NCBI GenBank assembly: GCA_010093605.1
Contig: MU004190.1
Coordinates: 372,001-436,000 of the forward strand
DNA: 64,000 nucleotides
Origin: Lophium mytilinum
Taxonomy: Eukaryota
Reading direction: 5' to 3'
Below, piece after piece: positions 11,601 to 60,974 of this stretch. A program made the translations under genes and the position numbers. Within the stretch, counting starts at the first letter, position 1; every line of letters starts with the position of its first letter. The notes beneath the pieces are model-generated. The model did not search any database and was not told where the DNA came from. It saw nothing but the letters and a program-made list of their open reading frames with translations.

Positions 11601-14425
11601 CCCGGTTATTTTAATTAAATAACTTAAGCCTACTTCCGCTAATAACTCTTTTAGACGCCCGCGTCTAGTACACCCTCCGGCGGTTAAGGATAAATATAAT
11701 AATAATAACTCCGCCTACTTTAAGGTCTATAGGCTCTTAGATAGACGGGTCTATTACTATAGTTAAGTATAAACTATATATATAGAGTACCTTATAAGCT
11801 AGAAGAGCTATAGTATTAAAGATAATAAGTAGGTTTAATATAATAATATTAATAAGAACCTTATAGACGCTTATAACGCCGCGTATATCTAACCTTTAGC
11901 AGTTTTAAATATTATAGACTCTATCTATTACTACTACGCTACTATTATTTACTAGGCCGCTTTACTAGGCCGCTATTATTTACTAGGCCGCTATTATTTA
12001 CTAGGCCGCCTCTTTACTGCCTTAGCTATTATAACTTCTTATATATAAGAAGCCGTCTACTTCTATAGCTTTTATAAAGACGTTAATTATAAAGCTATTA
12101 ACTTTAATAACTTCTATAACTTCTAAAATTTACTTAGAAGCCCTCTATCCTTTATAAGCTATTATGCTATATTATTATTTATAAGCCTCTAGATTACTAA
12201 ATCTTAGATATTTATTAGTACTAGTTATTAAGGGTAATAATATCTTTTAGTATAGGTAATTATTATAGGTTTATATAGATAACTACTTATTAGAGCTATA
12301 TATACTATATAGCACGTAATAGACGCCTATATATAAAATATTAGACGCCGGCGTTAGATACGCCGACGCTGTACAGCCCTTAAGGCTGCGCCTACTAGCT
12401 AGCTAATAAGATAACCTTTATAACCTCTACTTTTATACTAGTTATAGTAGTTAACGCTATAGTTTAATAGGGCTAGAAGATAAGGGTATTATACTTCTTA
12501 GCCTGCTAGAAGGCTATATTTTATATATCTATAGTATAGATATATTATATAAAGTTATTAAAGTAATTATATATTACGCTATTAACTAGTTTAGATTATA
12601 GGTAGGGCGTAAGGCGTGTTTTAAATTAGTAGATAAGCTTAGCTAGCCCTTAGTTAAGGTTGCTAATAATATTAAGAAAGTAGTTATAAAAGGTTATAAA
12701 TAAGTTATTATCTATATAGAGAGTCTTAAGTTATATTAGTATCTTAGCCTTAATATTATATTTACTATAGCTATTATTAAGAAAGTAGAGGGCGTTAGTC
12801 TTATTATAGATAATTTAATTATAGCGCTATACCTAGATATGCTTAAAGGGTCCGCCTAATAAAACACTCTTAATATAGTTAAGCTTATAGCTATCTATCT
12901 CTTTAGAAAAGGCGTAGTAAATCTTAGTAAGAACTTTACTACGCTAGATTAGATATACGTCTAGGTCCTCTCTATTAAATATAACTAGGTCCGGCTAGCA
13001 GTAGTTATACTAGTAGGACGCTAATAATAGTAGCTAAGTATAGGGTAGAGTATAGCTATTATAGTAGCTATTATTATAATATTAGTTATCTAAACGCTTA
13101 TTATATAGAGATATAGAGCGGCGGGCTTAGTTACTACTACTATAGAGATTTATATTTAGAGTAGAAGAAGTATATCTAGGCTTTATATAGCTATAGCTAT
13201 TATAACTATAGTTATTAGGCCTACCTAGTAGTTATTCTCTAGTCCCGCCGTTTATCCGCTAATAGTTAATATTATTATCGCGCCGCTTATTATTATTAAA
13301 ATAAACGGGCCCTTTAGATATTATCTTAGTAGGCTTAGACTATTATTATTATTAGAGCTTATATATATAAGCCTAGGCAGCCTAAAGGCTAAGCTTAAAA
13401 TTATTAAGCTAGATCTTTAGGTCTATAATAATCTTATCTATATTATTAAACTACTTATAGAGGTTTATAGATATATTCTTCTATTTCTCTAAGCCGGCGC
13501 CGTAGTTATTAATATAGATATTAGTACTCTTAACTAGAGGGCGTAGTAGTTTAAAGGCTTTAAGCGGCTTAGAATTTACCTATTAATAGAACTTAAATAA
13601 GTTCTAGAATATAGTACCTTCTAGCTTTATAGTTAGGTTCTTAATATTATATAAGTTTAGAAGAAGGTTAAAGGTAATAGGGCTCTCTATAATCTAGAAG
13701 TCTATACTAATAGTATAGAAGTTCTAGGTATTAAGGGCCTCTGCTATAGCTATATTAAGTAGCTTACTAATGCGCTTACGCTACTTAGTAAGACAGTTTT
13801 ATTAATTCTTTATATATAAGGCTAAGCAGTTAAGGTCTACTTATAGTATCTTTTTATCTACTTTCTTAAAGATGTCGCCCTAAGTATAGTCCTATATTTT
13901 ATTAATATTCTAGTAACTAACCTCCCCCTTACCTTATAAAATATTAGAGTTATAGAGTTACTTACTAGGCGTATTAATATAGTTAGTTATACCTAGTTAT
14001 TTATAGTAAGGCCTAGGCTTTATATAGTATAGAAAATAAGAAGAGAGTATTAGAGTAATTAAGTAAGTAAGTAAGTAAGAAAAAAAAATATATTAGTTTT
14101 AAAGTTAGTAATTAAGTAACTATATAGCTAAATCTTAAAGCTAGTAATAGTATCTATATAGGTGCGCGCGTATATAGTAGTATAGCTATATAAAAAAAAA
14201 TTAAGGTTTCTATATTTCTATATTTCTAGGTTTTAAAGAATAATATAACCTAGTATTAGGTTTATAGCTAAGAAAAGAGTTATATTACTATTAATAAGGT
14301 TATATAGAGAGGAGAGAGGCTCTAGCTATAGGCCTACTATATAGTTAAGTGCGCGCCGGTAGAACCCTAGGCGCCGGTAGAACTCTAGGCGCTAGAAGAA
14401 CTCTTAGCCTAGAGATTATATAACA
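5611..14425 (+). mobile_element. RIP-inactivated Ty3/Gypsy element of a second family (element 2), gag-pol plus long 3' region; 5' LTR upstream of the window
   Basis: Pro/Gly-rich gag start (~5750-5830), protease (~7505), RT GRVVIDIRGLNK (~8941), DAALFFYQW-like (~9061), YIDDI-like (~9250), RNase H IDVDAS-like (~9745), integrase (~10500-11200), chromodomain (~11720-11890). The 3' end ...TATAACA at ~14425 abuts an unrelated RT fragment. Confidence 0.85.
11189..11300 (+). repeat. ~21-bp tandem repeat (CTATTAAGACTCTAGAAC core) in element 2 integrase C-terminal region
   Basis: About five degenerate copies; the same core also occurs twice at ~7292-7335. Confidence 0.8.
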
Positions 14426-16314: not shown

Positions 16315-16324
16315 NNNNNNNNNN
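16315..16324. other. assembly gap (10 N)
   Basis: Run of 10 N inside element 3 pol. Confidence 1.
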
Positions 16325-30347: not shown

Positions 30348-33222
30348 AAGAGTATAGATATATAGATATAGTTTATAAAGCTAATAATAAAGGCTCTATC
30401 TATATTAAATAAGGCGTTATTTATACTAACTATCTACTTATAAGTTTAATTTTTATTATTTATTAATAATTTTTAAGTAGATATTTATGCGTTTATTTAT
30501 AGCAGGGATATTAAGTTAAAACGCGTTAATTTTAGTAAAAAATTGCGTAGTTTATATATAAAGTCCTATTATAATAAATATATAAATATAAATAAAAATT
30601 ATAATAGCCTTCTTTTAATTTCTATACCTCTCTTTATAATAGTATCTATACCTCTTAATTTCCTTCTATATACTTTATAACGCTGTAGTTAATTTCTACG
30701 CTAAATTTTATAGTTTCTATAACTATACTATTCTTATTAATAGATTCTTTAAATATCTATCTACTTATACTATTTTTTTTATAGAGATTATAATAAAGGC
30801 CTCTAATATACTATTAATAGCTAGATTCTTATTAAGCACGTAGTATACTACTACTAGTATCTAGCTAAGAATATTAAAAAGCGCTTTAAAGTATTTACTA
30901 GCTATTAATTCTATTTTCTTACCTATACTATAGATAATATTATAATTAAGTATACTATATAGAGAATAGAGTTCTTAGTAGATAGCTTTAGTATAAGAAC
31001 CTATCTATATATATTAGATTTATAGAAATAGCTAGTAAGAGATACTAAGGCGTATAGGTTTAGAGTAATTACTAGCAGTGTTAATAAGTTCTTTAATAGT
31101 ATTATTTAAGAGTAGAAAGAGTAGTCTACTCTCTCTCTTTTTAGCTATTTATAGCACCTTATAATTAAATAGCGCGCCGCGTACTAGCTTAAGGCTAGTA
31201 AGTTAATAGAGGTATAGAGGCAGCTATTTAACTATAATTATCTAGAATAGCTTATACTCTATATATATTATAATTCTTAGTACTTTCTTATAGTAATTTT
31301 TAATAGCTTTTAGAGCCTAGAGCTTCTATATAAGAATTAAAAGCTAGCTTATATATATATTATTTAAATAAATATACTTACTAATACTAATACTCTTATA
31401 GCCTGCGCTTATATAGGCTACTACTACTCTAATAAAGTATATATTATGCACCTTAATAAGTACTACTATATCTATAGTAACTTCTAGAACTATTAGTTTT
31501 CTTATAAATATACTATAGCTATTATTATAAGGCTAGGCTTAGTAAGTATTTTCTATATAGATTTCTATTAACTTTATAAGTAGTAGAAGAGCTATAGGCC
31601 TTTTAAGAATAATAGGCTACTATATAACTATTATAGAGGCTCTAGCTATATATAGCCTATAAGAATTAATAATATTTTTCTATCTAATAACTACCTAGCG
31701 CCTATATATAAGGTAATCTATAGAGTATTATAAAAGAAGTAGAAATAAATAGGTAATTAACTATCTAATACTAGATTAGGCTAGTAGTATAGTATATATA
31801 GGTTTTCTAGTTATAATAAGGCTAATAAAAGAATATATAAAGGCTATCTAGAAATTTAAAATAAAAAATTATTAAAATTAGATAATTTTTAGTAGAGAAA
31901 TTAAGCTTTATATATTTCTATTTATTTAGATACTAATTATTAGAAATATAGGCCCTTTTAGCTAGTTTCTATACTATTTTCCCTTAGCTAGAGTATATAA
32001 AGCTAATTTTCTTTATTTTCTTAATTTTCTATAGTTTCTAAGGTGCAGCTAATTATATATAGGCCTTAATACTATATTAGTAGCCTATATATAGTTATAT
32101 AATACTTAGAAATACTATAGAAATATATAGGCGCGGAGCTTATACTTAAAAGGGCCTATTAGCTAGCTTTTAGGCCTTAATTAGTATAGGCTAAGTAATT
32201 AGGCATCTCTATAGTATTTATAAGTATTAAAGACTATATAGAGTATATTTACTAGTATTATAAACTATTATTATATCTTAAATACCTTAAATACTTTATA
32301 AGAATATTACCTCTATATTATTTAGTATTAGATATTATGCATAGATAGTATATAGTAAGTAGAAAATTTAGTTTATATAATAGAGTAATTTCTTATAAAG
32401 TATTTAAGAGTATTTAGATATAGTTTATAAGAATAAGTAGTTAGCCTTATATAAATTTTTTAGCCTTATTTAATACTATATATTAACTCTTAATATAATA
32501 CTAAATAGCCTACTATAACTATAAGGCGCTAGCCTATTTTCTACTCTATTTTCTCTATTTAATACTAAGTCTAGCTATACTATAACGCGCCTATAATTCT
32601 AAGAAAGTAAAGCCTATACTAAAAGGTATAGAGGCGTGCTAAGAAATACCTATAGAGAAATAAGGCTAATAGACTAGAGTAGTCTAGTTTTAAAAAAAAA
32701 AAATTTAACTTTAATGCTATATATTAACCCTTAATACTATAGCTAGCTAGATATAACTTCTAAAAGATAATAGAGAAAGAACTTATAATTAAAATATATT
32801 AAATACTAAGACTATAGCTAATAAATTTACCTTATAGTTAATATTTAAAAAAGGTATACCTCTTAAAAATAGACTAGTTTATACTAAATAGGCGCCTAAA
32901 TGTCCTTAGACGCTTTATAGAGGAATTTTAGGGCGGGAGGGAGGAGGGCTAGGAGGCTAGGGGCGGTAGGTAAGGGGGTGGTGGGGCCGTCCTTACTATA
33001 TTAAGTGTAGTGGTGTTGTGGTGGAACGCCTTAAAATGACTCGGAGAAGCGGCTGAGCACCTGAGATAACCAACGTGTAAACCCTGCTAGGCAACTCCAC
33101 TTATCCATCCTTCCTCCACTTCTCATCATCTCAACAACTCTGTGGCATTTGAAACTCCTCTGACTACGCTTGGTCCGCTACTCCAAAGGACCTCTAAATC
33201 CCGTCCTCTTCGACGTCCCGTA

Positions 33223-34677
33223 TCAGCCTGGACCATGCGAACCCCCTAGCCGTGTAAGCTTGTGTCATCCTTCTAATGCTTGAGATAGTCCTTACCTATA
33301 TTAGTCTTGCCAGAGAAGCTTTGGGAGCCGTAAAAAGCGGTAGCCCCTTCCTTGTTGTGTCCTTGATGGGTCACCGAACTGCCTGTCGATGTCGTTGCAA
33401 ACTACGTCCAAGTTTAGCCTGGTTGCGTCTCAAGGCTAATGATTTAGACTTGCCGTAGGACTTTCGGTGCGAGGCTTCACGGCGCTGTCCTTGACCCATT
33501 TCTTCAGTTCATGCAGAACTTTTTGGTAATTGTTGTCGTTCCGGCCCTCATACTTCGTCATACCGCTGTGGTCGGCAAGAATTCCAATGGTTGGGTATCT
33601 GTCTAAGATCGCCGACGTGTCGGGGACGATCTGGCTCTGCGTTAGACTGATATGATATGAATCTCGGTGAAGTCTTACTTTCTTATTTAGCAAGGCGTAT
33701 TTCTTCTCTTCGTAACAGCAGGCCACTTGGATGGAATCAGAGGTTTGCTGTTCACGGTAAGCCAAGTACAGCTCGAACCTTTTGCGAATGTCTTCCAGAT
33801 GTATTCCCTGCTCTTTGAGATCATCGAGGATCTTAGGGTTGCCGTCCTTGACAGTGCTGGCAAGATTTACGAGGATGCCAGCCATACCAGCTGAAGGCGC
33901 GCCACGATGCGGCGTTCCCATGAATAAGATGCCACACGTAGATGCAGATATCTGGTTGAAGCGCTGGGCGTCTTGGGAATGCATCAGGGCCTGGTCAAGT
34001 TCAGATGAATTCGTCATCCCTGGACGATTACCAACTTACCTCTTTACAACTGAGCCCACCGAGGCTATGACAGACGAACACGATGGGGCGCTTCTAGTCC
34101 ACGCTCAGAGCCTGAGACCAGAGAATGCTAGAAGGTGTGTAACTCACCAGTATTGTCCCATTTGGCGCAATCAGAAATCTTTCGAGGTCGGCACAAAGAC
34201 CCTTAGCATGTTGGTGACTGTTGTTACCCGAAACTGTCTGGAAGAAACCCTTTCCAAGGACGTCGGCATCATATCCCCAAGTCACTTGGGTATAGTCAGC
34301 TCCATGATCGTATCTTAAGGGCCATAGGCACGTACTGATACGTGCTTCCGGTATGTCTTTTGGGAGAATGTCCCTGGGCCAGAAGCACTCCTCGCCTGAA
34401 ACGCCAGGGCGATACGTCCATGTACTTCGGCGATTGCCAGTCAATCCATGCACGAAGACGATACTGTTAAAGACCCATTAGCTGCTTGGCCTCCTACAAC
34501 GAGTTCCACTCACTCTATGATCGAAGCTTCTTGAGGATCTGAAAGAATTTCCATACCGTAATCTCCAGAGCTTGCTGGCATCGAGGTTTGCTCTGCTGTG
34601 GTCCTATGAAGCAGTCAGAAATGATATAGACTACAAGAAGGGACGACCAAAGCCGTGTCGTACCGTTTATTGGCCAT
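33223..34677 (-). CDS. SesB-like alpha/beta-hydrolase (lipase/esterase-type effector) with C-terminal candidate amyloid signalling motif, ~346 aa
   Basis: Predicted exons 34677-34664, 34603-34514, 34463-34336, 34284-34148, 34093-34040, 33990-33679, 33630-33454, 33401-33296, 33245-33223 (1041 nt, frame consistent). Motifs DIVFVHGLTG, WPRDILP, ARIMTWGYDAD, IVFVCHSLGG (nucleophile Ser), GILFMGTPHRG, ADHSGMTKY. The last two exons depend on a GC-AG intron at 33453-33402. Confidence 0.88.
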
Positions 34678-35063
34678 ATTCGATGTCCTAAGAACCTGAT
34701 CAGACGGCGCTACGCTAAAGATCTGCCGGTTATTCATATGGCTCCTGATATCTAAAGATGTGCCGTTTTCTTGACATCACGCTCACCCAGTTGTGTGATA
34801 CAAGCGGGAGTTTGGTCTGTAGTTTTGTCGTTTCCCAGCTGATCCAGCTTTGCTTCCGACAATCGGCGATCAAACTGCAGGTATCCAGGGCTTGATGCCG
34901 GGACCCGTTGTTTCCTTCAGCTTGGCTGAGGTACCACATGGTCTAGCGACACATTTATACTGTTTCCGCCACTCCACCTAGTCGCCTCCTAACTTACAGC
35001 CCAAGTCCAGCGGATGTCTGTCTTCTATTACTTCTACCCCACTTCGTAGTACGCTTTCGAAAG
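34678..35063. promoter_or_regulatory. putative bidirectional promoter between hydrolase and NLR
   Basis: Only 386 bp separate the two divergent start codons; no specific sites identified. Confidence 0.55.
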
Positions 35064-38000
35064 ATGCCGGGCGACTATCATTTACACCATCAAGGAGACA
35101 ATACGGGGCAAAATGTGACCTTTTATGGGCAAAACACGATTCATGGTACCCCAAACTTCAACCTAAATGGTTCTAGCCGAGAGCGAGATCTTCAGGACCA
35201 ATGCCTACAAGATCTCTTGAGACATTCCATCGAAGAAGCGCCAGAGGCTGCCTTGGCTGGACTGGAGACTCGCAAAGGCAGTCGAACTCAAGGCACATGC
35301 AAATGGATCCTTGAAAACGGTTCATATACCACATGGAAGAACGATCCGGAGCCTGGTATCCTCTGGGTTTCAGGCTCGCCCGGGAGGGGAAAGACAATGT
35401 TGGCGATACACACCACCAAAGTCCTGCACAAGCAAGAAGAATATGTTCTATATTTCTTCTGCGATTCTAGCCGGGAAGTCACCGGCAACATGATCCTGCG
35501 ATCATTGATCTACCAAATGCTGGAGTTAGACACCTCCCTCTTCGAGCACATCCAGAAGATTTACAGGATTCGGAAGCAGGAACTCCTCTCAGACTCCGGA
35601 TTCGAGTTGCTGTGGAGTGTCTTCACAAGGATGGTGCAACGACCACGCTCGGCAGAATATCAGACTAAGACCTTAGCACCAGTGTATTGCATACTCGATG
35701 GTCTCGACGAGTGCAACGAAGCGAGTCTGGACTCATTCCTCAAAAACCTCACACGACTGTATCCCAACGAATACGACGAGGCCAGTTCGCCCTCTAGCTC
35801 TGACTCAAGTGACCCGCCACCGCCCACTCGTCTCAAAGTCATTGTGTCAAGCAGGGAGACAAAACCCGAGTGCATTGGCTCTTACCTCTCACGATTCCGT
35901 CGTATTAGGCTTGACCGAGACTGCAAAAACGGCATCAAAGAGGATGTCGCCCGCTACATCGAGGCAAACGTCAGAAGGATTGCAAATTCGAAGGAAAATC
36001 GGTGGCCAGATGAACTTCGTGAATTTGCAACGGACGAGCTTATTGAGAAGTCAGAGGGAAGATATCTGTGGTGTGCCTTTGTGCTGGACGAACTGGAGCA
36101 CAGAAAACACATCGAGGTGGAAAAGACAATCTCCGAATTCCCTCGTGGGCTTGAAAACGCATATGCCCGAATCTTACTTCGGATTGACCCTCAACATCAT
36201 GAACTTGTCTCGAAAATTCTTTGCTGGGTTCTTGGCACACGCCGAAGTCTATCTCTGAGAGAAATTGGGATGATGACTAACGTGTCACCTGCCCGAGGCC
36301 AAAGTGAAGAAGCAGCAGTGGTTGAACAATTGTCTTACTGTAATCATCTAGTGCAGGCCAGTCGCCGGCGCGTGTTCATCTGTCATCAGACGGTTAGGGA
36401 CTATCTACTTGGTAGGACCGACTGGGATTCACGCCCAACCGCATTTCACTTCGCTGCTGATGAGATCAATTCGACGATTTGGAAGACTTGCTGCAACGTG
36501 GTCGTTTCCGGACTTTCTGTACTAAGACGCTATCATGAAGAACGGCCACAAGACGAAAAGTTCTCCGGTGATAAGAGTAGATTTCTGTTCTTTTCCTACG
36601 CGATCAAGTTCTGGGCGACTCATGCCACTACTCAATCGATCGGAAGCGCCTCAGACAATGAAAATGGAGGCACGTTGCACAATGAAGACGGAAGTGTCTC
36701 GGAGGACGAAAAAAGAGGCTTTTATCTGTCTGCTCCATCACTCCCAAAAATGTGGGAGTTTCGATTCGACACATCAAGTAAGAAGAACCAAGGTCTAATG
36801 TCCCCCCCGAGAGCAGCTTCGGTCTCCAGGGCTATCCTCCGCGTTGCAGCCTTCTATGGAGTTTCCGGGCTTTTAACCCTAATGCTAAACTCGACTCTTT
36901 CTCTAGCGGACAAGACTGCCCTACTGAATCGCGGAGAGCGCAATTACGGCCGATCTCTACTCTCCATTGCGGCCATTAGAGGGCATTATGATGTTGTCAA
37001 GTTTTTGCTTGATGCAGGTGCTTTCATCGACTCGCTGGATCATTACAAGCATACGCCTCTTCATGCAGCATGTTACTCTGGCTATGAGAGGGTGGCTGAA
37101 CTACTTTTGGAACGCGGTGTTAGTTTGCAACCAGCTCTCAGTGGCGTCAACGCAATACATCCTGCCGTGTGCTCTGGTTCCCAGTCATTGGTCAGGCTAC
37201 TTTACTCGAGAGAGCCCGTGCTCAACGTGAGCGACAAGAGAGGCAATCATCCTCTTCACATTGCTGCGTCTCGTTGGGACCAGCCGATGATCGGGCTGCT
37301 GCTCGAGCTCGGTGCAGATCTTCCTGCTCGCAATGACTTGGGGCAAACACTGCTTCACAGCGCGATGTTGGGCTACGGCAGCCCTGGCGGCCCCCAAGTT
37401 ATCCGCGTTCTCGATCGTCCCGGATCCAGAGAACTTGAAGGGTTACTGCTAGGACTCAGCCCCAACCGGGTTCTCCCATGCTTAGTGGAATGGCTCATTG
37501 ACAACGGGTTGGACGTCAACGCAATGGATGACCATGGCAATAATCCACTACATTACGCTGCTGCTCTTGCCCGAGATGATGTAGTTTCAGTCCTGCTCCA
37601 AAGGAACGCTGATGTAGATGCGCTTAACAAGAACGGCGAGTCACCTCTCTGGAAAGCTGTTCAAGATAATCGTCTGGATATCATGAAGGATCAGGTTCAC
37701 CAGAGACACGAATACGTCCATGAGCACTCGGAGTTGGAGGATCTTGCGATAACCTCGTCCATCATGCTTAAGTACCAGGAACGGGCCGAAAAGACGGTTC
37801 CACTACTCCTTGAGAAAGATTGCCAGATTGGGGGTTGCGTTGACAGCGGAGACAACGCTTTTCATGTTGCGGTCCGACTCCGCGATATTGGAATGACAAA
37901 CATATTTGTCAACCACGATTCTGGCCTAATAAAGTCAATGAACAAAAGGGGCAGGACCCCTCTGCACCTCGCCGTCGCCTACGGCTGGATTTCGGGAACC

Positions 38001-38774
38001 CGAATCCTTCTCACTCACAGTGCGGAAAAAATGTTGCTCAACAATCGAGGAGAGACGCTCTTGCACGAAGCCGTCAAGCATACTAGCAAGCGCGCGATCC
38101 TTGATTCACTCTTCCAGAATGGGGCCATCGGGCAACTGCTTTCACGAGATAACTCCGGAAACCTCCCTTTGGATGTTGCCATCCACCATGGCCAAACTGA
38201 GGCTTTCGAGCTCCTGGCCGAAAAAATGAATCCAAGCGATCTCTGGTCAGCCAAGAGCGCTGATGATATCGTCCCAAGGCCAGCATCCGACGAAGATTTA
38301 CGCCTTCAGCTAAAAGGCAAAGCGGTCGCGGCACAGTGCCTATGGGATTGTGACATCGAAGACAGCGATGTCGATGGTGACGAGTCTAGTGTACAAAAGC
38401 CGCTGAACGTCGAACCCCAGTGTGAAGAGGAAACAAACAATGGTTCAGGTGTTACGGCCATGGATCCACTGGACATGGGCATTTCCTCCAGATCCGATGC
38501 AGGAGCTACAGTGGAGCAAGATAGCTCAGAAGAGAGTCATTCTAATGCCGAGTTGAATGAGTGGGATGATGAAAGCGAACCATCAGATCCGAATCATCAC
38601 CCTCGTAACCAGCTTTTTGAAGAAAAGGAAGAGCAGCAAGTCTCCGAAAGTCTTTATGATACCATGTTGGAGTTTAAGAAGGTCTTTTTATCGATTCGAG
38701 CAACGCGGCACTACAGCGCTGCTGCGAATCCTGATCTTGAGGATAGAGATTCTCATTGCACTTACTACGTCTAG
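35064..38774 (+). CDS. fungal NLR: short N/Q/G/H-rich N-terminal motif + NACHT + ankyrin repeats + acidic tail (1236 aa, intronless)
   Basis: GTCKWI motif, Walker A GSPGRGKT, Walker B YCILDGLDEC, EGRYLW, P.GL..AY.RIL, HQTVRDYL; many TPLH/NPLH ankyrin repeats; only ~35 aa precede the pre-NACHT helices. Confidence 0.95.
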   Translation: MPGDYHLHHQGDNTGQNVTFYGQNTIHGTPNFNLNGSSRERDLQDQCLQDLLRHSIEEAPEAALAGLETRKGSRTQGTCKWILENGSYTTWKNDPEPGILWVSGSPGRGKTMLAIHTTKVLHKQEEYVLYFFCDSSREVTGNMILRSLIYQMLELDTSLFEHIQKIYRIRKQELLSDSGFELLWSVFTRMVQRPRSAEYQTKTLAPVYCILDGLDECNEASLDSFLKNLTRLYPNEYDEASSPSSSDSSDPPPPTRLKVIVSSRETKPECIGSYLSRFRRIRLDRDCKNGIKEDVARYIEANVRRIANSKENRWPDELREFATDELIEKSEGRYLWCAFVLDELEHRKHIEVEKTISEFPRGLENAYARILLRIDPQHHELVSKILCWVLGTRRSLSLREIGMMTNVSPARGQSEEAAVVEQLSYCNHLVQASRRRVFICHQTVRDYLLGRTDWDSRPTAFHFAADEINSTIWKTCCNVVVSGLSVLRRYHEERPQDEKFSGDKSRFLFFSYAIKFWATHATTQSIGSASDNENGGTLHNEDGSVSEDEKRGFYLSAPSLPKMWEFRFDTSSKKNQGLMSPPRAASVSRAILRVAAFYGVSGLLTLMLNSTLSLADKTALLNRGERNYGRSLLSIAAIRGHYDVVKFLLDAGAFIDSLDHYKHTPLHAACYSGYERVAELLLERGVSLQPALSGVNAIHPAVCSGSQSLVRLLYSREPVLNVSDKRGNHPLHIAASRWDQPMIGLLLELGADLPARNDLGQTLLHSAMLGYGSPGGPQVIRVLDRPGSRELEGLLLGLSPNRVLPCLVEWLIDNGLDVNAMDDHGNNPLHYAAALARDDVVSVLLQRNADVDALNKNGESPLWKAVQDNRLDIMKDQVHQRHEYVHEHSELEDLAITSSIMLKYQERAEKTVPLLLEKDCQIGGCVDSGDNAFHVAVRLRDIGMTNIFVNHDSGLIKSMNKRGRTPLHLAVAYGWISGTRILLTHSAEKMLLNNRGETLLHEAVKHTSKRAILDSLFQNGAIGQLLSRDNSGNLPLDVAIHHGQTEAFELLAEKMNPSDLWSAKSADDIVPRPASDEDLRLQLKGKAVAAQCLWDCDIEDSDVDGDESSVQKPLNVEPQCEEETNNGSGVTAMDPLDMGISSRSDAGATVEQDSSEESHSNAELNEWDDESEPSDPNHHPRNQLFEEKEEQQVSESLYDTMLEFKKVFLSIRATRHYSAAANPDLEDRDSHCTYYV

Positions 38775-39067
38775 ACCATCTCGTCAGAATGATCGATAAG
38801 GCTGGGAGCCAAGTGTCCGAGACTAACGAACGGGCATTGTGAAGCTATGAAGAGGTATGGAAGAAGGGTATTTCACGGTCTGAGGTTGTCTCGATTAGAT
38901 AGAACATTGATGCTGTGAAGTCGGGCGTATGAAATGGAGCTGTGATTCTAGCATGTAGTTATCAGCAACTGTATATGGTATCTAAGCGAAAAGAGTCGAA
39001 AGAGTATGCCCGAACGCCAGATATGTTGCCTTGTTGACATGTACCCGTATCCCATAGAGTTCAATCG

Positions 39068-39779: not shown

Positions 39780-40294
39780 TATGCTGCAGAGTAACGCCTG
39801 AATGCAAGTGGATAGGCCGTTGAGGAGGGACAAGAACGGGATGGTTATATCGGAGAATGGCGAGGCACATGGCGCGATAAGCAGCATCTGGCAGGCGGGC
39901 AGTGCATTGATCGGCCGCATCCTTCGCGCACGGCGCCCCTGTCTGGCGGGGTTTGAGAAACGCGATTCAGGGGCTGTAGACGCTGTTATTGGCCGTCTAT
40001 CTGCACTGCGCACCGTCCGACGGCCTGTGCGGGGGGCTTCCTGCGCCTTGCTGTTCCGCCACGGAGAGTTGGATATTTGCCATGGTGGGCACGCATGGCT
40101 ATTTCTGCCACCTTGATGCCTTCACTGACTTCACGGTTGAGACCTCTACTGATTCTTCTCTTGCAGGGACATCCTACGACTGTCTTAGTTCTACAGCTCA
40201 GTCCGGAGATCCACGATACATCGCCATGAACGGATAGCCCACTCTCTGAACGACACCACACATCTTGCAGGTCCAGCTTCATACCCTCCAGAAC

Positions 40295-41392
40295 ATGGCC
40301 ACCACGTACAAACCACGAATAGTGCGGAGCTTTTCAAGCGCCTTCACGCTCACCTCCAAGACCTCCCAATCGTCCGACGTCGAAAGCACCCCAGAGACGA
40401 TCAAGCCGAAACAACACCTCCAAGGCTTCCCCAGCCTTAGCGCACTCCTAGCCTCCGACCACGATCTCCAAGTCTTCCGCCGCTTTGACCGCCTTGCCTC
40501 TAGAAATCTTCTATACTTGCAAGCTGAGATACTTGACCTTGAAACGCGGCTGGATGAATTGGATGCGGCAGACCTGGAGGTCGCGAATGCAGAAGAGTCG
40601 GAATGGATGGAGGTTAAATTGACAGCCAGATGCTGGGAATCATTTGCGGAAAAGGCAGAAAATGGAGAAGAAAGAGAAGTTGAAAAAATGAAATTGGTCA
40701 AGCTGATCCGCGAGAGGATGGCTGAGTATCGTGCGTATCCCATTCCGTGCTGATTGTATGCAAGGGATGCTAACCAAGCGTCAAGAGGACGCTCTGATCC
40801 GACAGAGCACGATTCTCAACCTTGACAAACCCAATCCAAGAGTCAAGAGCGGTATCATAGGCTGGTTCGAGCAGAATCGACCCCTCGTAGGCCATGGAAG
40901 GAACCTCTTTGACGGCAAATCTAAAAATGACATCGTGGCGCTACGGACGCCACCTGATCAGGACCGTTTGACCATGTTTTTACAAAACCGTCTGGGGTAT
41001 TTCCTGCGCAATAGAAAGAAAGCAAAAGATGGTCCTGCTGATTGGGACGGCATGCATTACTTCCATGAGACCATAATTGGACGTATCGTTTCTTTCTTCA
41101 GCGTTTTCCTCGCAGCATTACTTCTCGTCGGTGCTATTACGAGTTTGTATTTTGTTTCGAACGCGTCTTCACGAATGGTGCTTCTTGCGGTGTTTACGAC
41201 GCTTTTCGCGGCTAGCGTGGGTGTGTTGACGAATTCGAGGAAGGTGGATATCTATGCAGCAACGGCAGCGTAAGTGGATTGGAAACGTCTTCGGGGAGTT
41301 GTTACTGACTTGGAGTATCTAGGTATGCTGCAGTTTTGGTTGTATTCATTGGCAATGTGGCGCCTGGGGCCAACGTACAATCAAACAGCTAA
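40295..41392 (+). CDS. DUF6594-like membrane protein
   Basis: GFPSLSALL...VFRRFDRLASRNLLYLQAEI..LE..LDELD N-terminal signature; C-terminal hydrophobic helices ending ATAAYAAVLVVF; two introns (~40731-40785, ~41270-41322). Confidence 0.85.
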
Positions 41393-52406: not shown

Positions 52407-55400
52407 CTATTTCTGGCGATACTGGAACAACGCAAGTATAGCCTTCTTCTCGCATGCTGCAGCGACGTCTAATGCGCTTTGCCCTGCATTATTTTCGTGA
52501 AGCGGATCTACTCCTCTTGAGATGAGGAATTCGAACAACTGGCGATCGCGTGCTTGGCAGCGGCTCAAGTCATATCCACTACCTTCCTTCCGGCCCGCGA
52601 CTGTGTGGAGTGCAGTCTCACCCTTCAAATTCCGCGCGTGCACATTAGCATTGGCAAAGAGTTCCTCAAAGTGATCAACATGAGGTGAGCCCTCTGCGTA
52701 AGCATAGGACTGATACTCGTCGTCCAACATAGGATCTGACAGAAAGTTGAATAGCGGAGGGTTTCCGGCGTTGTCACGCGCGTCGATGTCCCCGCCCATT
52801 GTCAGATATTTTTGCCAAAGCCGGTAGCATTGATCTTTGTAGTCCGGTGGAAGATCTCGACGTGCTGTAAATCGGCGTATGCTGACATACTTCTTTAAGC
52901 ATTGGGGGGCCATATGATGCAGGGCCGTCATGCCCTCTGGGTCGGGTTCCAAAAGGTGGGCTCCTAGAGCAATCAAGGCTTCGCAAACTTGCGGACGAAG
53001 GGAATGTAAGGCACGATGAAGTGGCGAGTAGCCTTTGTTGTCTTTCAATATGATCAACGACTTGCAGTCATCTCTCTCCATAATTTGAAGAATCGTGTCG
53101 TCCTCGGACTCCAGAGTGTCAAGTAGATGGTGAAGAGCATGCCGACCTTCATAGTCCGAGACCGTAATATCAGCTCCATTCTCCAGAATCTTCAAGGCAG
53201 GAGACATCTCTTTAGGAACCCGGGGTTTGTGCTGATAGCCAGGCAAAGCCTCAATCCAGTCGCATGAAGCTAGGAATACAGTTCTTCCACGAGGATCTCT
53301 TGCGTTGAGATCGGTGCGTTCAAGATGATCCAGAACTTCCATCAGGATTTCGTATTCGGAGTGCTCGAAAAGGTAATAAAGCAGTACGTCTTTCTCATTT
53401 AACTGCGAGTACATATCCGCCCCGCGTTCGATGAGAAGTTTGACCACGGGAACAAAGTCTTTAGCCGTTGTGCTAAGGAAAAGGGGGCAGGCAGCGCAAA
53501 GGAGAGCATATCTTGCTTGGTCCTTGACGTTAAAGCTAACCTCGCATTGCTTTGTGGCATCCTTACTATTTGGACTCGCCCCATGGTCGAGTAGGAGCGT
53601 CACAGCTGAGACATTGGCCGCATGGATCGCCGTGAATAGAGGTGGAACACCCCCGAGTAAAGGATCTGCACCCCTCCGGAGCAGCTCTTTCAACACATCT
53701 GTTTGAGTGTTAGCTCTGCTTAGACAGGAAGCACCGGAAGCGTCAGTAATATTCGGATTGGCCCCTAGGTCTAAGAGGACCTTGACGCACTCAAATTTCC
53801 AGAAGTTCTGGCCCTCGCCCATGATGATGGTGGAAGCAATGTGTAACGCAGTCTCCCCCTTCTGATTCAGTGCATTAACATCGGCCCCCTTACTGACAAG
53901 ATACTTGATAGCATCCATCTGCCACCAGTAGCGCCCGTGCGCAAGGCAGTGTAATGCGGATGGCCCAAGCTGATAATCATGAAAGTCCGCCGGCGCGTGT
54001 ACAAGAGCACGTTCGTTGACGTCTACACCAAAGCGGTCGACTAGAAGCTCTAGCATCATCATATTGGAGGTGGGCCTTTCGCAACACACATGAAGTGGCG
54101 GTGCAAAATAAGAGGGTTGGCGTACTGAGTCAGCGCACGCTTTTCGTGTCCACTCCATTGTCCATTCCAGGTCGTCAAACTTCTTTGCATGATGTCCTAT
54201 TTTCTCCATTCTGTCGATCAAACCTTCATGCGCAACGAAGTTAAGGATGGATGGGAACTCCAGATTTTGGACAGGCTGACTCATATCAACTCCCTTCTTA
54301 TCTAAGTGTTCAAGGTCGTCTGCGTCTAGGTGTTTGATGTATTTTCGGGGACAGTTGAGCAACTCGGTAACGATCGAGGCATCAAGGCTGCCAATAGAAG
54401 TCGAACGAGCAATAAGTGACGCTTCCACAAGGCGCATAGAGCTTGATGACCCAGCCTCAGCAATGCCGTCATACATCTTCGAGTTTAGGAGGCTCCGAAT
54501 CATTCTTTTGCAACCGTACCAAAGAGCTAAATCCAAGGGATCGTGCTTTTCATTGTCGATGGCAGCAGTATCTGCACCATATGTAATCAGCATTGATACA
54601 ATGCCTGCTGGGGAAGGCGTATGATATTCATCCTCGAAGTTGGGTTCCATCTTCCATTTACACGAGTACCACGGTTCTTGATAATATGATCCTTGGCCAA
54701 GAGGTCGAAGCGCATCCTCACAAGACTGGCCAGGATGTGAGCGTCCATCTTTGAGGACTGTCCAGCGCATCTGTTCGACCTCAAACTCGGCACAGGAATG
54801 GAGGGGATTTCTTCCCTGCATGTCTTTGAGGTCGACTGAAGCACCAGCTTTAAGGAGGTAATACACGCTCTCCTGTCTCCCTGAGGTACATGCGTCGTGA
54901 AGAGGCGTTCTGAGGAATGAGTCTGGCTTGTCAATCATTTCCTTATCGATCTCCTGCAATAGTAGTCCTACAATATTTGCTTTCCTTGCTCGGCAGGCGA
55001 GATGAAGTACACTTCTCTTGTCCTTGGTGACTATCGCAGAATTTGCTCCGTCCTTCAGAAGTTCTGACACTAGTTCTTCAGAACGAAGACAAGCCATGTG
55101 CAATGCCGTCATGCCGTTCTTATCGCGAGTCTCCAGATCCAAATTTTGCCCACTCTCGCGGAAGAGAGTGAGCAAAGGTGTATAGATGCCGAAGAGTCCA
55201 GTAGACCCTAATCGGGTTCGTTGAACACTCAAATGAAGTGGTGTTTCACCGGCCAGATTCTGGGCATTCACAGACAAACCCAGCCCCAAAAGCTTTCGCA
55301 CTACGTCGATGTACATATGACCATCGTATCGCCTGGAGACTTCGTGTAAGAGGCTGTTGTTTTGCGAATCGAGGACATAAGGATCGAGTCCGATTTCAAG

Positions 55401-58400
55401 GAAGTGGTCCAATTTAGTCCGTGCGAAATCATATCTACTGCAAACGATGTGCATGATTCCTTGGCCAGAGTTATCCTTTGCGTCTAGTCGAGCCCCACTC
55501 TCCTCTAAAGCATCAAAATATCTCCCTTGCGACCCGATATTCTCTAGTAGAGCTGTCCTCCCAGCGCCATTTCGAGTTTCAAGGCAAACACCCGCCGATT
55601 TGAGTAATTCGATATATTCCATCATCTCGGGGTAACTCCAGCAGGAGTTGTGATGGAAAAGGCAGCGCGCTCGCGTGGCAACATCGGCGCAGTCTCCCAA
55701 AAGTGTTTTGAGAACTTCTAGGGAGCAGCTCTGTACTGCTAGCTCTAACGTCGTCGTTCCTAGATCGTTCTGTGTCTCACTTCGAGCACCCTTTTGGAGT
55801 AGGAAGCGAACCACATCATCGGTGGAGCCCACACTGCGATTTAAAGAGCTGTTAGGGCCTATATTTTGTTAACATTATGATGCAGCTGCTTCTATCTGAT
55901 GAACCTGGAAGGGAAATGAGACCAATGGCCACGTTCCAGTCCTTGCGAGTGCCTGGGCTCACCATAAGGGAAGAGGTGAATAGTCTCTGATGCGAGAAAA
56001 AGAAGTTCACATGGACTTACATGACAAAGCGGCATGGAGCAAAGAGTCTCCAGAAATACCACGTGAGTCGATGTCAGCACCAAACTCGAAGAGATGTTGT
56101 AGCAAAGTCAGATTCTGAGAGCGCCTCAGAAACTCATGAAGCGGAGTGTCGCCCGCATCATCATAGACTTCTAACAGCGCATGGCCTCCGGCTTGAAGCA
56201 AATATCTGCATTCCGCATGATGACTGGTGTGCGAGAGACAAAACAAGAGAAGGTGCATTAGAGTCCGCCCTCTTTCATCCTTTTCGTTCAAATCAGCGCC
56301 GGCATCCAAAAGATTCCGTAGAATAGGCTCGAAGGATGACTGGTCTCCTTTAGATTCGAACGACACGAGACCTTGCAAGGCAGTCTTTGGTGTCATTGCT
56401 GTCCCCATACTCCTATCACCACGGTGCGATAGATATCTCCTGCCAATTTTCCGATGCGATTTAACCTGAACATCGGCGCCTCTGGCGAGAAGTAGTTTAA
56501 CGCAGTCTGGGTTACGAGCGGTTACAGCGAGATACAAAGCGGTCTCTCCCAGTAACGTGGCATTGGCGGAGACCTCAGTACTTTCGAGGATTGCACGCAC
56601 AGCTTCCGTTCTGCTATATGCGCACGTCAAACACAGGGCTTTCTCGATCTCGTCTCGTCCTAGATGGGGGATCATGATAATCAATGTTTCGGTATGTCCG
56701 TGTCTGCACACATAATCAAGGGCAGTTTCCCCTTTCGTACTCCCTTCACCTCCAAGCAACATGCCGGAGTGGTTCTCGCGTGTTTTGGAGGTCAAAGGAT
56801 CAACCCCAACTTCGAGAAGCCTTTCAACTGTGAATGCATGGTTCTTCCTTGCAGCCTCGTGGAGTGGTGTGTTGCCACGAATATCATGCGGATCTGAATC
56901 TGCACCGTTATCGAGCAACATAATCACCATTGCGGTGTTCCCGTTGCGAGCTGCCCAGTGTAGTGGAGTTCTCTCAACAGCGTCAAGTGAATGAACGCTC
57001 TCGCCTCGTTCTAAGAGCTTAAAGGCATACCTTGTCAGACCCGCAAATGACGCGATATGGAGTGGGGTGACAATGCCATTACTCTTCTCATCAGAAAGCG
57101 TAACTCCCCATCCCCATACTTGCTTTGTCCAAGATTGGAAGTCGCGATTACTAGGGTCAAGAAAGTCGTCAAGACTGGAAAAGAAAGTTTCGTCTTCCAC
57201 ATCATAGCGACTTGCATGGTAAACCCAGAAATCTAGCGAATATTGCAGGAATGGATGTTGCAAGCGAGCAGCTTGGTAGCCGGACTGCTGTCCTTTGTCT
57301 TCAGATTCCTCCTCATACAACTTTACGTTCGCTGTTGCCTCAGCAAAAGACATGACACCAGATTGTAGATAACGGAGGCATCGGGTAGCGAGTCTTCCAT
57401 GAGTAATGGACGTATGAATGATCGGAAATTGCTCTATGTCTCCTAAGCGAGATTTTCGTTCGGTGTCGAGCAAAAATTCCGTGAAAGAATGGTGAATTAC
57501 TTGAACAGTTTCGTCCTCAAGAATCTCGATGAGTGGACCGCATGCAGACCTAGCGATGGCCTTTGGGGCGTCGGGCAGATCGGTTGCGGGAAATTCGCAG
57601 GTAAGCAGACTGGATATTTCGGTCAGACGAAGTGGTTTTGCTGAGTGCGTGACGGCCTCAAGAAGAGTTAGTTGAATTTCGTTGCTGATGCCAGATTCCG
57701 ATTGCTGGTTGTGCAAGATGCTATTATACATGTCCTCTAAGCCTATTGGGAGGGTGTTGGCTAATTCGTGGATGTCCATATTTTGCTTCGAGTGAAGATT
57801 GGGGATGAGCTGATCAATCATCAGACGGGCGTACAAGAAGAGGCCTCCGGCTCTTTCACATATTATGTCGCATAGAGAATACGCGCTTTCTTCCCCGATG
57901 ACTCCTTTCAAACGGTAGGTAACAAAGCAACGTATGTCTTTCCCCACAAGATCTTGCTCCAGACTGATGTGAACAATTGAGGAGTTCCACAAACCGCTCT
58001 GTAGATACTGGTGGGGTCGACTAGTCAGGAATACTTTGATCGAATCAGGTCGGTAGGCTCCCAGATGATCGAGTTGCTTCAGAAAAAAGGACCTGCCGCT
58101 CTCATCCATCTCATCCATGGCGTCGACTATACAGTATACCCGGGGAACAGAGGATAAGCCGGCCAAAAGCCATTCCCAGAGTTGGTCATTTGAGACGTCG
58201 GCTAACTCCCCATCGAGATGGAGTTGGATGAGAGCTTGCAGGACGGTGCTAGAAGGAAGCAGCTGCGCGAGCCAATCTTGGCACAAGGATCGATGGTTAC
58301 GATTTGTAGCAATGATCTGGCGAAAGAAAAAGGACAAGACGGGAAAAGTCCCCTCCTTCTTCAAGTGCTGCGCAACGGAAGCAGCCAGGACAGATTTCCC

Positions 58401-58658
58401 AGACCCAGGAACGCCTTTGATCCAGAGACTTCCATGCCGAGGAGATTCGAACCATTGGCGATATTGATCCGTATCACAGATCCATAGCCCTGTATCAGGA
58501 GCCTGTGATGAGACGTGTCGATGGTATTCGGATGATTCTGCGTTGTAATTCGTTGGCTGCAGCCAGGACTGGATCTTGGTAATATCGTCGGGTTCAAGGC
58601 TGGCTTCTTGGAGATCGATGATTTCGAAATCATCCGAATGACTGCTTTGGGAATCCAT
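52407..58658 (-). CDS. very long NACHT-ankyrin NLR-like protein (~2029 aa)
   Basis: Walker A GVPGSGKS, Walker B YCIVDAMDEM, GLFLYA, IHHSFTEFL, then over 1400 aa of ankyrin repeats; the two track ORFs join in frame through intron 56020-55859 (GTAAGT...GTTAAC...TAG). Confidence 0.92.
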
Positions 58659-59564
58659 GATGAATGGAAACCAGAGTCGATGGGGATGGGATGGAGATGA
58701 AGAGCGGCGATGAACTATGTAGAGATACTACATATCTAGGCAACTGCGTACCCTTCTTCACGCTTTAACAGCGTCAACCCACTCCCTGAGAGGCACAGCT
58801 TCCTTGCTACCTTCACTTTTTAACGTTTATGATATTCGTGTTCTCGGTGGATATGGTGCCCAATATATGCTGTTCGGCCCAATGATGCTAATGAAGGAAG
58901 GAGACTCGCTGGTACTGCAAGGTTTCGTTTTGAAGTAAGCGCACGTGTCGATTTTGGCAGCGCCGGACTTCCACAACTCTACTCATCACGTTATGGGCCC
59001 TATCTTGACAAATAAGAGCTGTAGTGCACTATTTCCCCTGTTTAAATATGTAGGTGTAGTCCAAATTCATTTCAACATCACGTGACCTACGATATCCTCT
59101 TTGGTTGGTCATTCTTACAATCACTCTCTTCTTGCCCCTCTGTGTCTTTTCCTAGAAAAAGGCCCTACTGGATTGCTTATGTCTAGACCTGGGCTGTTAT
59201 TTCTACGGGAAGCATGCTCTTCCCCACCAATGACACAAATCTCTTGGTGTTCCTTGGCTAGCTGAAAACACCACGACCGACCCTTGTAAAACGCGTAAGG
59301 GTCTCAGCTGAGAGGTACAGAATCTCCATGCAGCCGATCAATCGAGGCTAGGACAATGGCCATTCCCTCTTGAGTATAAGTAATGGGCGTCTAGACGTGG
59401 GGTACTTCCTCTTTCTCGTCCGCTTTTCTTCACTCCCCGCACTCCTCCCCTTCATAGCCGTAGTCTGACTCTAGAGCTGCAATCACTCGTTACTCGGCCG
59501 TCCATTGTGACCAAACCAACTTCAAACAATCGACTTCTCTGAGGCCGTTCTAAGCCCCGTCACT

Positions 59565-60974
59565 ATGCCTAGCAAAGGTATCCAGTGCTACGCTTACATA
59601 GGCGCCCCAGGCTGCCAAGTCGAATTCTCCGTCCCGAAGACAACGATCAACAAGCACGATTTGAACAATTGGACACAAGACCACCTTGAAGTGGACCAAA
59701 AGAACCTGGGCTCGCTCTTTCACTACACAGGCCGCTTTTCCTTCAGGGTGTCTCGCGATGGCCGTGAGCTCACCAATCAATGGGTCGAGGTCAATTCCCT
59801 CACCGGCGATCTGGATGACGGCACAATGAAAGACATGCAGCAAACACCGTCCATCCTCACAGAAGACGTGATTATAACATATAGCTTCTACGACGCTGGA
59901 CCCGGTGTCGCCGGCCTACCGAAGCAGCACCAATGTGCCGTGTCCGTTACCCCCAACCACTCGGACTGGATTCGGGATGTTGCACCCATCGATTCTCCGC
60001 AAGCCGACAAACCCTTCCATCGTATGGTGCTTCCTAGCTCGCACGACATCGGCATGAACAGCATGACGACTTCCAAAGCTATGCTACGCAACGCGGGCAC
60101 CAACATCATCAAAATGGCACTTGGTACCCTACCTGGAGCTTTTCGCGTTTTGGACAAAGTGTCTGACTCTGCAATCAACGCTATCGCACCGAACATCATC
60201 TATGGGCTTGCCGTTACGCAGAAAGACTCTCTATCCACAATTTTAGCAATTGGCGCTCGATACTTTGAGTTCCGTCCCGCACATTGCCACCGCGAGATGC
60301 AGAAGGTCTCGCCGCTACCAGACACGCTGTACTTCCAGCATGGCGCCATTCCGGGAATGCCATACGCCGAATTCCTTCACGACATCGTGCAGTTTCTGAA
60401 CAGTCACCGCGAGGAGATCGTCGTTGCGCAGCTACGATGGGATGGGGTTCCAGGCGACTGCCCCCGGCCCTCGGATGACGAGCTCCGCGAGCACATTGAC
60501 AAAGCGCGAGAAGGAACCGACATCCAAGTCGGGAACCTCGACGACATGAGGAACAAGACAATCAAGCAGCTTCGCCAGGATCGCCAGCGTTTGATTCTTA
60601 TCCGTGACATTGAACAAGCGTCTAATTACGATGATAAGGCCAACGCGACGCTCGACGGTGCGACTATCGTCACAGCGCTAGACAGCATGTCTGGGAATCC
60701 GCCGCGTGGGAAGCCGTTGATCTTGCTACAGTGTCAGGCTACTGCGACGAACATCCCGGATGTGATTGCGTATAGTGTGTTGAGCTCGGATGCTTCAACG
60801 AGCCCGCTCCTGGCGACAAAGCCGATTTGCGATATCAAGACTCTACCGTCGCTGAGGGGAGACGTGGGGAAGAACTTGACGCGGGAAGACGGAGTGGTGG
60901 CAATTATGAACGACTTCTTTGAAGGTGGTACTGCGGAAGTAGCGATTGGGCTGAGTCGGGACAGGCTGCGCTAA
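59565..60974 (+). CDS. PLC-like phosphodiesterase (PI-PLC X-domain type), intronless
   Basis: MVLPSSHDIGM, AVTQKDS...GARYFEFRP, YFQHG, FL..H..EIVV match the PI-PLC TIM-barrel signature; no signal peptide evident. Confidence 0.85.
   Translation: MPSKGIQCYAYIGAPGCQVEFSVPKTTINKHDLNNWTQDHLEVDQKNLGSLFHYTGRFSFRVSRDGRELTNQWVEVNSLTGDLDDGTMKDMQQTPSILTEDVIITYSFYDAGPGVAGLPKQHQCAVSVTPNHSDWIRDVAPIDSPQADKPFHRMVLPSSHDIGMNSMTTSKAMLRNAGTNIIKMALGTLPGAFRVLDKVSDSAINAIAPNIIYGLAVTQKDSLSTILAIGARYFEFRPAHCHREMQKVSPLPDTLYFQHGAIPGMPYAEFLHDIVQFLNSHREEIVVAQLRWDGVPGDCPRPSDDELREHIDKAREGTDIQVGNLDDMRNKTIKQLRQDRQRLILIRDIEQASNYDDKANATLDGATIVTALDSMSGNPPRGKPLILLQCQATATNIPDVIAYSVLSSDASTSPLLATKPICDIKTLPSLRGDVGKNLTREDGVVAIMNDFFEGGTAEVAIGLSRDRLR

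Follow-up and report, generated by a model that had tools for sequence, protein, structure and literature searches.

Amyloid templating from a NOD-like receptor (NLR) onto a separately encoded effector is among the few signal-transduction mechanisms common to fungi, bacteria and animals, and pairs of an NLR with a SesB hydrolase are textbook knowledge in the field. To our knowledge, only about five families of such signalling motifs have been described in fungi, namely HRAM, sigma, PP, PUASM and the provisional GDQN. In this study a stretch of 64,000 nucleotides from Lophium mytilinum (contig MU004190.1 of GenBank assembly GCA_010093605.1, positions 372,001 to 436,000 of the forward strand; hereafter the window, whose own numbering is used throughout) was found to carry two divergent genes, one for an NLR (35064..38774, plus strand) and one for a SesB-like alpha/beta-hydrolase (33273..34677, minus strand), which share a short motif, placed N-terminally in the former and C-terminally in the latter. 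These data make it reasonably probable that the pair is an NLR/SesB-like module, in which the NLR N-terminus would template the hydrolase tail into amyloid, with a lipolytic output. Systems of this kind are known; the motif family seems to be either new or a distant variant of sigma.

NLR/SesB pairs with sigma or PP motifs have been described (PMC3321046). The HET-eN/SesA/SesB locus of Nectria haematococca (Pfam NACHT_sigma, PF17106) is the same as that of Lophium in that an effector-less NACHT-ankyrin NLR adjoins a SesB hydrolase, and in that a motif rich in G, N, Q and aromatic residues is common to the NLR N-terminus and the hydrolase C-terminus (PMC3321046). However, sigma spans roughly 40 aa, over which GxGxQFNxx (A) and GGTQNINT (B) units are repeated threefold (PMC3321046), and is found mostly at NLR positions 50-99 (PMC9815663), whereas the Lophium motif occupies residues 9-32, and the SesA gene of the sigma locus has no counterpart in the Lophium pair, no SesA gene being found at the locus. 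NLR N-terminal motifs are mostly located at positions 5-9 (PMC9815663).

The PNT1/HELLP/SBP system of Chaetomium globosum (PP motif; Pfam Ses_B, PF17046; related to RHIM and BASS3) also combines an NLR with an adjacent SesB-like lipase, SBP, and its motif, present once and about 20 aa long, is close to the very N-terminus of the NLR. The PP motif, FxGx(x)NxGLQLxGxNxGxL, has a G-hydrophobic-Q-hydrophobic-G core (PMC3321046), which was found in neither Lophium peptide, and no HeLo-like partner gene was found in the window; the likeness to PP is confined to an FxGxN-like start (FYGQN in the Lophium NLR) and a loosely pseudo-palindromic HxG ... HxG arrangement in several members of the Lophium motif family. 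NWD2/HET-S of Podospora anserina (HRAM) follows the same logic, with an effector-less NLR adjoining an effector and homologous N- and C-terminal motifs, but HRAM effectors have two 21-aa pseudo-repeats and a HeLo pore-forming domain, whereas in Lophium there is one copy and the effector is a hydrolase. PUASM (FxGxGxQxxGxGxF; PMC9815663) and GDQN (NxxxGxQYxxxGxGDQNxVSxxxxQxN; PMC12261475) are discoveries of the same type, being pairs of NLR N-terminus and neighbour C-terminus outside the three classical families, but PUASM sits on PNP_UDP effectors and GDQN on a SesA protein, unlike the hydrolase-borne motif of Lophium.

The NLR-side copy of the motif is encoded at 35088..35159 on the plus strand (residues 9-32, HQGDNTGQNVTFYGQNTIHGTPNF) and the effector-side copy at 33297..33368 on the minus strand (HQGHNKEGATAFYGSQSFSGKTNI), near the hydrolase C-terminus. 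An earlier note on this DNA, made from the letters alone, had reported these positions and sequences together with an ungapped identity of 9/24, all of which were reproduced; the BLOSUM62 score of the two 24-mers is 46. In a comparison with all six-frame 24-mer positions of the window (n=127,858) the two peptides were each other's best match at this score, the runner-up scoring 25 (for the NLR query, another register of the motif exon) and the following ones 22-24. No third copy of the motif, as might be expected on a SesA- or HeLo-like partner, was detected in the window by six-frame scanning. When the last 60 aa of the hydrolase were shuffled and compared with NLR residues 1-76, none of 1000 shuffles reached 46 (mean 22.2, maximum 40), and when both termini were shuffled (40 x 45 aa) one of 1000 did. 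A short homologous motif, rich in G, N, Q, H and aromatic residues, is thus present at the NLR N-terminus and the effector C-terminus, and the statement that the genes share nothing else was borne out by BLASTP of the full proteins, which revealed no other similarity above 17 bits. The two start codons are separated by a divergent intergenic region (34678..35063) of 386 bp, as previously given, if the hydrolase starts at the ATG at 34677, and by 482 bp if it starts at the in-frame ATG at 34581.

Prediction of a complex of two copies of NLR residues 1-45 with the 42-aa hydrolase tail returned a score of 0.02 and gave no answer. ESM Atlas yielded no usable match for the NLR N-terminus, and for the tail of the deposited hydrolase model (P0001) the best feature score was 0.77 with a structural template modelling (TM) score <0.4, so that these matches are leads only.

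The NLR gene is a single uninterrupted open reading frame (ORF) on the plus strand, which begins with its first ATG, at 35064, and ends with the stop codon at 38772-38774; it encodes a protein of 1236 aa with an N-terminal extension (residues 1-76), a NACHT/NPHP3_N NTPase, ankyrin repeats and an acidic tail. The NACHT-type nucleotide-binding domain (35292..35765, residues 77-234) matched Pfam PF24883 NPHP3_N with 110.2 bits (1.5e-31) and PF05729 NACHT with 23.8 bits, with AAA_16 over the same stretch; Walker A (GSPGRGKT, residue 104) and Walker B (YCILDGLDE, residue 208) are both intact. Five ankyrin families were also matched, and the ankyrin-repeat sensor region was placed at 36921..38150 (residues about 620-1030), with limits estimated from the Pfam stretches of Ank_2 (6.6e-51, in five stretches), Ank and Ank_4. 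Residues 1-76 matched no Pfam family at E<=10 and are therefore regarded as an extension without effector domain; the protein has a nucleotide-binding oligomerisation domain and repeats, with a short extension in the place where an effector domain would be. Its nearest relatives are PNP_UDP-NACHT-ANK proteins with about 33% identity.

In the public database the NLR is represented by P0004 ('ankyrin, partial [Lophium mytilinum]', 751 aa), which is 100% identical but begins with LETRKG, corresponding to residue 67. The 66 N-terminal residues, including the motif, are absent from it, so that no survey based on proteins could have brought the two genes together. P0004 is truncated at both ends and also lacks an internal stretch at 36795-36940 (KKNQ joined to ERNYG), where the genomic ORF is continuous. 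A 9626-nt contig from the sole public sequencing run, X1, shows no joint at this place. The same contig has one extra T in the T-run at 38613, which would move the end of the NLR from residue 1236 to residue 1185 (...NQLF); the difference is due either to a homopolymer error in one of the two sequences or to a polymorphism.

The hydrolase gene on the minus strand was modelled with eight exons (34677-34664, 34603-34514, 34463-34336, 34284-34148, 34093-34040, 33990-33679, 33636-33454 and 33401-33273) and introns of 42-60 nt. From the ATG at 34677, a 14-nt first exon is followed by a 60-nt GT-AG intron that joins in frame. The deposited model P0001 ('hypothetical protein BU16DRAFT_463425, partial [Lophium mytilinum]', 301 aa) shares 88% identity with the translation of the stop-to-stop ORF, in which introns are read through, and differs from our model at three splice junctions. 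The closest named relative is P0002 of M. resinicola (56% identity). A phmmer search with the hydrolase against 1.84 billion representative sequences gave 8911 matches at E<=0.001, 236 of them at E<=1e-30.

P0001 scored 19.8 bits on DUF676, just below the cut-off of 20.3; of 8 motif-bearing relatives that were scanned, four (P0075, P0080, P0096 and P0078) passed this cut-off, and P0080 also passed that of PGAP1. AlphaFold2 with a 64-sequence alignment predicted an alpha/beta fold over residues 1-260 (predicted local distance difference test, pLDDT, 85; predicted TM score 0.82), with low confidence and predicted disorder for the last 40 residues (261-301), which comprise the linker and the motif; the single-sequence prediction (pLDDT 31) was unusable. 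In a Foldseek comparison of the predicted structure with PDB, the top matches were bacterial lipases (5h6g, 3w9u, 9g8u, 4gw3 and 1ex9; E 4e-7 to 8e-6), and PGAP1/Bst1 (8k9q) was found at rank 50. In the alignment, HSLGG (CHSLGG, Ser97) was shared by at least 90% of the sequences and His230 by every one. The protein therefore combines a predicted alpha/beta-hydrolase fold, the xHSxGG nucleophile elbow and a conserved histidine, with DUF676 sub-threshold for P0001 itself, and judging from sequence and structural model it is what the literature on fungal NLRs describes as the SesB-like lipase/esterase domain. In all five long relatives scanned (P0076, P0102, P0104, P0109 and P0110), this domain is fused into an 'all-in-one' protein, lying N-terminal to NACHT/NPHP3_N or NB-ARC followed by ankyrin or TPR repeats. 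The divergent neighbour of the Lophium NLR thus encodes a domain that is also found as an NLR effector domain in cis.

The motif is encoded by the last hydrolase exon (33273..33401, minus strand), which comprises linker, motif, short tail and stop codon (FATTSTGSSVTHQGHNKEGATAFYGSQSFSGKTNIGKDYLKH, then the stop). Its open frame of 42 codons (33401-33276) is preceded by a TAG and ends at the stop 33273-33275, so the further mini-intron after 33296 that the earlier note had supposed is not needed. The frame of the hydrolase body stops at 33436-33438, and the motif frame is +1 relative to it; an intron is therefore required to attach the motif. Ten frame-compatible GT/GC-AG introns of 52-103 nt were found to join both frames without a stop. 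Our model uses a candidate 52-nt GC-AG intron (33402..33453, minus strand; GCAAGT...CTAAAC...TAG), and the deposited model a 79-nt GT-AG intron (33383-33461, minus strand; GTCCTA...ACAG). P0001 ends with ...RTESSSVTHQGHNKEGATAFYGSQSFSGKTNIGKDYLKH and so contains the motif, which means that the public model already joins the motif exon.

To what extent the motif occurs on other hydrolases was seen from the best 150 of the 8911 phmmer matches, among which the C-termini of the 81 proteins of at most 480 aa were read. The motif was found at the C-terminus of nine of these 81, that is, P0001 and eight others (P0075, P0083, P0080, P0081, P0092, P0096, P0086 and, weakly with 10.7 bits, P0078), with the common pattern xHxG[DN]N..GA.A.YG.Q.F.G. 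Alignment A1 of the tails with the NLR N-terminus gave a consensus of about 30 aa, xSVxHxGNNxxGALANYGxQxFxGxxxxGxxHxG, in which His9 and Gly11 (NLR numbering) are invariant, Tyr21, Gly22 and Gly28 are present in at least 90% of rows, and the NLR core is ungapped. A degenerate DNA pattern of the motif core had nine matches in metagenomes, of which four were genuine (L004, L009, L005 and L007) and five were due to chance; among 185,579 prokaryotic genomes there was one match, which was not genuine. L005 and L007 have the same sequence and encode P0080, with motif and hydrolase body in one ORF, so that there the attachment needs no splicing.

An independent profile was built from eight non-Lophium tails (seven proteins and L004). 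In a six-frame scan it matched the Lophium hydrolase exon with 44.3 bits (E 2.6e-12). It gave one match per protein, and after P0078 (10.7 bits) the next best of the 222 proteins scanned had 3.5 bits. Against the 45-aa NLR N-terminus, with the null2 correction off, the profile scored 15.4 bits, a value reached by none of 2000 shuffles of that peptide under identical settings (mean 1.6, sd 3.2, maximum 13.3). Judged from these tails, the motif is a conserved C-terminal appendage in a subfamily of such hydrolases. Other stand-alone relatives (P0085, P0106, P0119, P0174 and P0211) end in different G/N/Q-rich tails: four of the five have ...IHG/IWG-x-V-x-S-x-VV-x-G-x-T-[IV]-HG-x-L-x-F tails reminiscent of HET-s-type repeats, and the remaining one has the tail NFYGANYGLQQFENSG, PP-like in look. 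None of the Pfam motif families matched P0106, P0174 or P0211 at E<=1. Judging from such tails, several types of motif seem to have been joined to one and the same effector scaffold.

The earlier note had listed HET-S, sigma and PP as precedents, which is apt, but the Lophium motif matched none of them by Pfam, regular expression (regex) or eye. The Pfam sigma, PP and HET-s families gave no match on the two peptides at E<=10 and none on eight motif-bearing hydrolases at E<=1, the sigma scan having been run without a sigma-bearing positive control. The sigma, PP and PUASM patterns were found neither in the Lophium hydrolase or its motif-bearing relatives (regex) nor in the NLR peptide (by eye), and GDQN was matched by neither peptide in a comparison made by eye only. 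Membership in sigma was rejected on the absence of A and B units and of a match to Pfam NACHT_sigma; in PP, on the absence of its core and of a match to Pfam Ses_B; in HRAM/HET-s, on the single effector copy versus two 21-aa pseudo-repeats, with Pfam HET-s_218-289 and HET-S unmatched; and in PUASM, on the absence of its pattern from the proteins scanned and on the effector being a hydrolase and not PNP_UDP.

The last 16 residues of the N. haematococca SesB sigma peptide (...GGNEVSGGNFYGSVQF; PMC8086366 Table 2) agree with GHNKEGATAFYGSQSF at 7/16 positions in one register chosen by eye, so a distant relation to sigma may exist. The only hydrolase-derived motif in the effector-side survey of PMC9815663, PF07819_017, was grouped with sigma. 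Six strings typical of the motif family and the genus names Lophium and Mytilinidion had no occurrence in the searchable part of the supplements of PMC9815663, which does not imply absence from that study, and full-text literature searches found no publication describing the motif, which is not proof of its absence from print. We thus regard the motif as a candidate for a further family of amyloid signalling motifs and, by its residues, possibly a distant relative of sigma. A more specific proposal is tentative and less likely than not: that this is a further undescribed family which serves SesB-like lipase effectors alone and is recognised by an invariant His-x-Gly together with a Tyr-Gly-x-Gln core, that its NLR partners have been missed by surveys through truncated gene models or unlinked position, and that the cross-beta switch would respond to pH or metal through the invariant histidines.

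For the Lophium pair, whose motif exon would have to be spliced in, we infer amyloid formation, templating and an enzymatic output from the analogy to NWD2/HET-S, PNT1/HELLP/SBP and HET-eN/SesA/SesB. A ligand would bind the ankyrin repeats and cause the NACHT domain to oligomerise, whereby the NLR N-terminal motifs would be brought together into a cross-beta nucleus. This nucleus would template the hydrolase tail, and the hydrolase, clustered or relocalised and thereby activated, may then give a lipolytic immune or cell-death output. The earlier note had proposed such an amyloid-signalling pair; the effector-less NLR, the lipase-like neighbour, the shared terminal motif and the fit to the profile uphold it, but a second NLR-side instance was not found, and the relative locus L007 is without an NLR.

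These last two points weigh against the proposed module, as do several others, and they would also fit a conserved hydrolase tail that works without this NLR, for example by assembling with itself, by targeting the protein to a membrane or organelle, or by sensing metal or pH via the invariant histidine, the likeness of the NLR being due to chance or shared composition. The effector side of the motif is kept (9/81 short relatives and four metagenome loci), and the one NLR-side instance known is that of Lophium; a word-based search with NLR residues 1-60 gave two candidates, none at E<=10. L007, an 85.7-kb contig, is the one relative locus with flanks, and 10 kb on either side of the gene for the P0080 hydrolase were examined. 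NACHT/NB-ARC was absent among the 12 ORFs scanned and a second motif was absent within 10 kb on each side, so that adjacency is not conserved there. In BLASTP of the full Lophium proteins the motif was the best segment, with 22.3 bits and E 0.051 (the rest at most 17 bits), and the pairwise match on its own is therefore marginal. With the HMMER default composition correction, the whole 1275-aa NLR frame fell outside the 12 best matches listed for the effector-only profile, the lowest of which had 3.5 bits. In fixed register the NLR motif scored 46 with its own neighbour and 45, 42, 38, 36, 31, 30, 26 and 21 with the eight other tails, in keeping with the family as a whole; as an unrelated family member reaches 45, there is no clear pair-specific co-evolution. 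Nevertheless we consider a tail independent of this NLR unlikely, since none of the 2000 composition-preserving shuffles reached the profile score of the NLR peptide, the two peptides are reciprocal best matches over the whole window, and residues 9-32 of an effector-less NLR coincide strikingly in position with the extreme C-terminus of the divergent neighbour. Moreover, unlinked NLR/effector partners have been reported for known motifs (PMC9815663), and L007 thus weakens the claim of a conserved adjacent pair but does not refute templating. Quite unlikely, in our estimate, is an interaction via the motif that is a soluble short linear motif or beta-augmentation contact and not a self-propagating amyloid or prion fold. 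It would account for the Lys, Glu and Asp in the effector core (HNKEG) and the Pro at NLR position 30, and for the failure of the Pfam amyloid-motif families to detect the motif. On the other hand, the composition (G, N, Q, S/T and aromatic residues), the length of about 25-30 aa and the terminal positions fit described motifs (PMC3321046; 10.1101/2020.01.06.895854), the monomer tail is predicted to be disordered, and the experimentally tested pairs of this architecture (HET-s, PP, sigma, PUASM, BASS1 and BASS3) formed amyloid-like aggregates (PMC3321046; 10.1101/2020.01.06.895854).

Splicing of the motif exon into the Lophium hydrolase is putative, and the pair could instead be a decaying relic without function in this genome, in which the exon is no longer joined and the hydrolase ends with ...SPTASLNH. 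The hydrolase frame has a stop at 33436-33438 and the motif is read in another frame, the best donor of the shortest intron is non-canonical (GC-AG), and that of the deposited model, GTCCTA, is weak; the annotated P0002 of M. resinicola ends at the equivalent read-through stop, without the motif, and the gene abuts a 33-kb AT-rich, apparently degraded block. The contig from X1, a run whose kind was guessed as RNA, follows the genome without rearrangement over 33201-39000, every hydrolase intron being retained. Skipped in it are 51 nt at 33254..33304 that have intron signals on the plus strand (GTAAGC...CTAAT...TAG) and overlap the hydrolase stop and last codons in antisense. If X1 is RNA, this would indicate a plus-strand spliced transcript antisense to the 3′ end of the hydrolase, perhaps a long NLR 5′ leader, and spliced hydrolase mRNA would be in the minority in that sample; should X1 be DNA, the skip would represent a deletion variant. 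The contig does not settle the motif exon either way. A relic is nonetheless decidedly unlikely, because the intact 42-codon frame matches the profile of the family with 44.3 bits, the stop upstream of it doubles as an AG acceptor preceded by the branch-like site CTAAAC, the candidate introns of 52-79 nt match the other hydrolase introns (42-60 nt), and both flanking coding regions are otherwise intact.

If the pair is indeed an NLR/SesB-like module, a lipase-linked family would widen the sequence space known to support amyloid switches, the two peptides of about 25-30 aa each would form a compact pair for cross-seeding and specificity studies, and a handle would be gained on the amyloid activation of an enzyme rather than a pore-former. 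The locus also reveals an annotation blind spot, as the NLR side of the pair is invisible to protein-based surveys in the public gene models. PUASM and GDQN illustrate that new fungal motif families are still being added (PMC9815663; PMC12261475).

The pair is located at the border between two kinds of DNA. From position 1 to about 32,900 the window is an AT-rich block with a GC content of 0.24-0.36 (2-kb windows), zero stop-to-stop ORFs of at least 150 aa and 10 consecutive N at 16315-16324; its appearance is that of a repeat isochore degraded by repeat-induced point mutation (RIP). Beyond it follows gene-dense DNA of about 50% GC, and the 3′ end of the hydrolase gene is about 300 bp from the border of the block. 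A second NACHT-ankyrin NLR was found in the window at 56010-58727 (minus strand; NPHP3_N 4.4e-31), with an acidic N-terminus (MDSQSSHSDDFEIIDLQEA...) without the motif. It is followed by a long ankyrin-only ORF at 52410-55868 (minus strand), which may be its continuation, and its divergent neighbour at 59511-60971 (plus strand) matched no Pfam family.

At L007, the neighbours of the P0080 hydrolase gene are a DUF6594 gene, a HET-domain gene, RRP5 and a transporter. The HET-domain gene (10258-12615, minus strand) is tail-to-tail with the motif-bearing hydrolase and carries no copy of the motif. A DUF6594 gene is found near the hydrolase in both loci, at 40250-41270 (plus strand) in the window and at 6006-7017 (minus strand) in L007, which is possibly a remnant of synteny.

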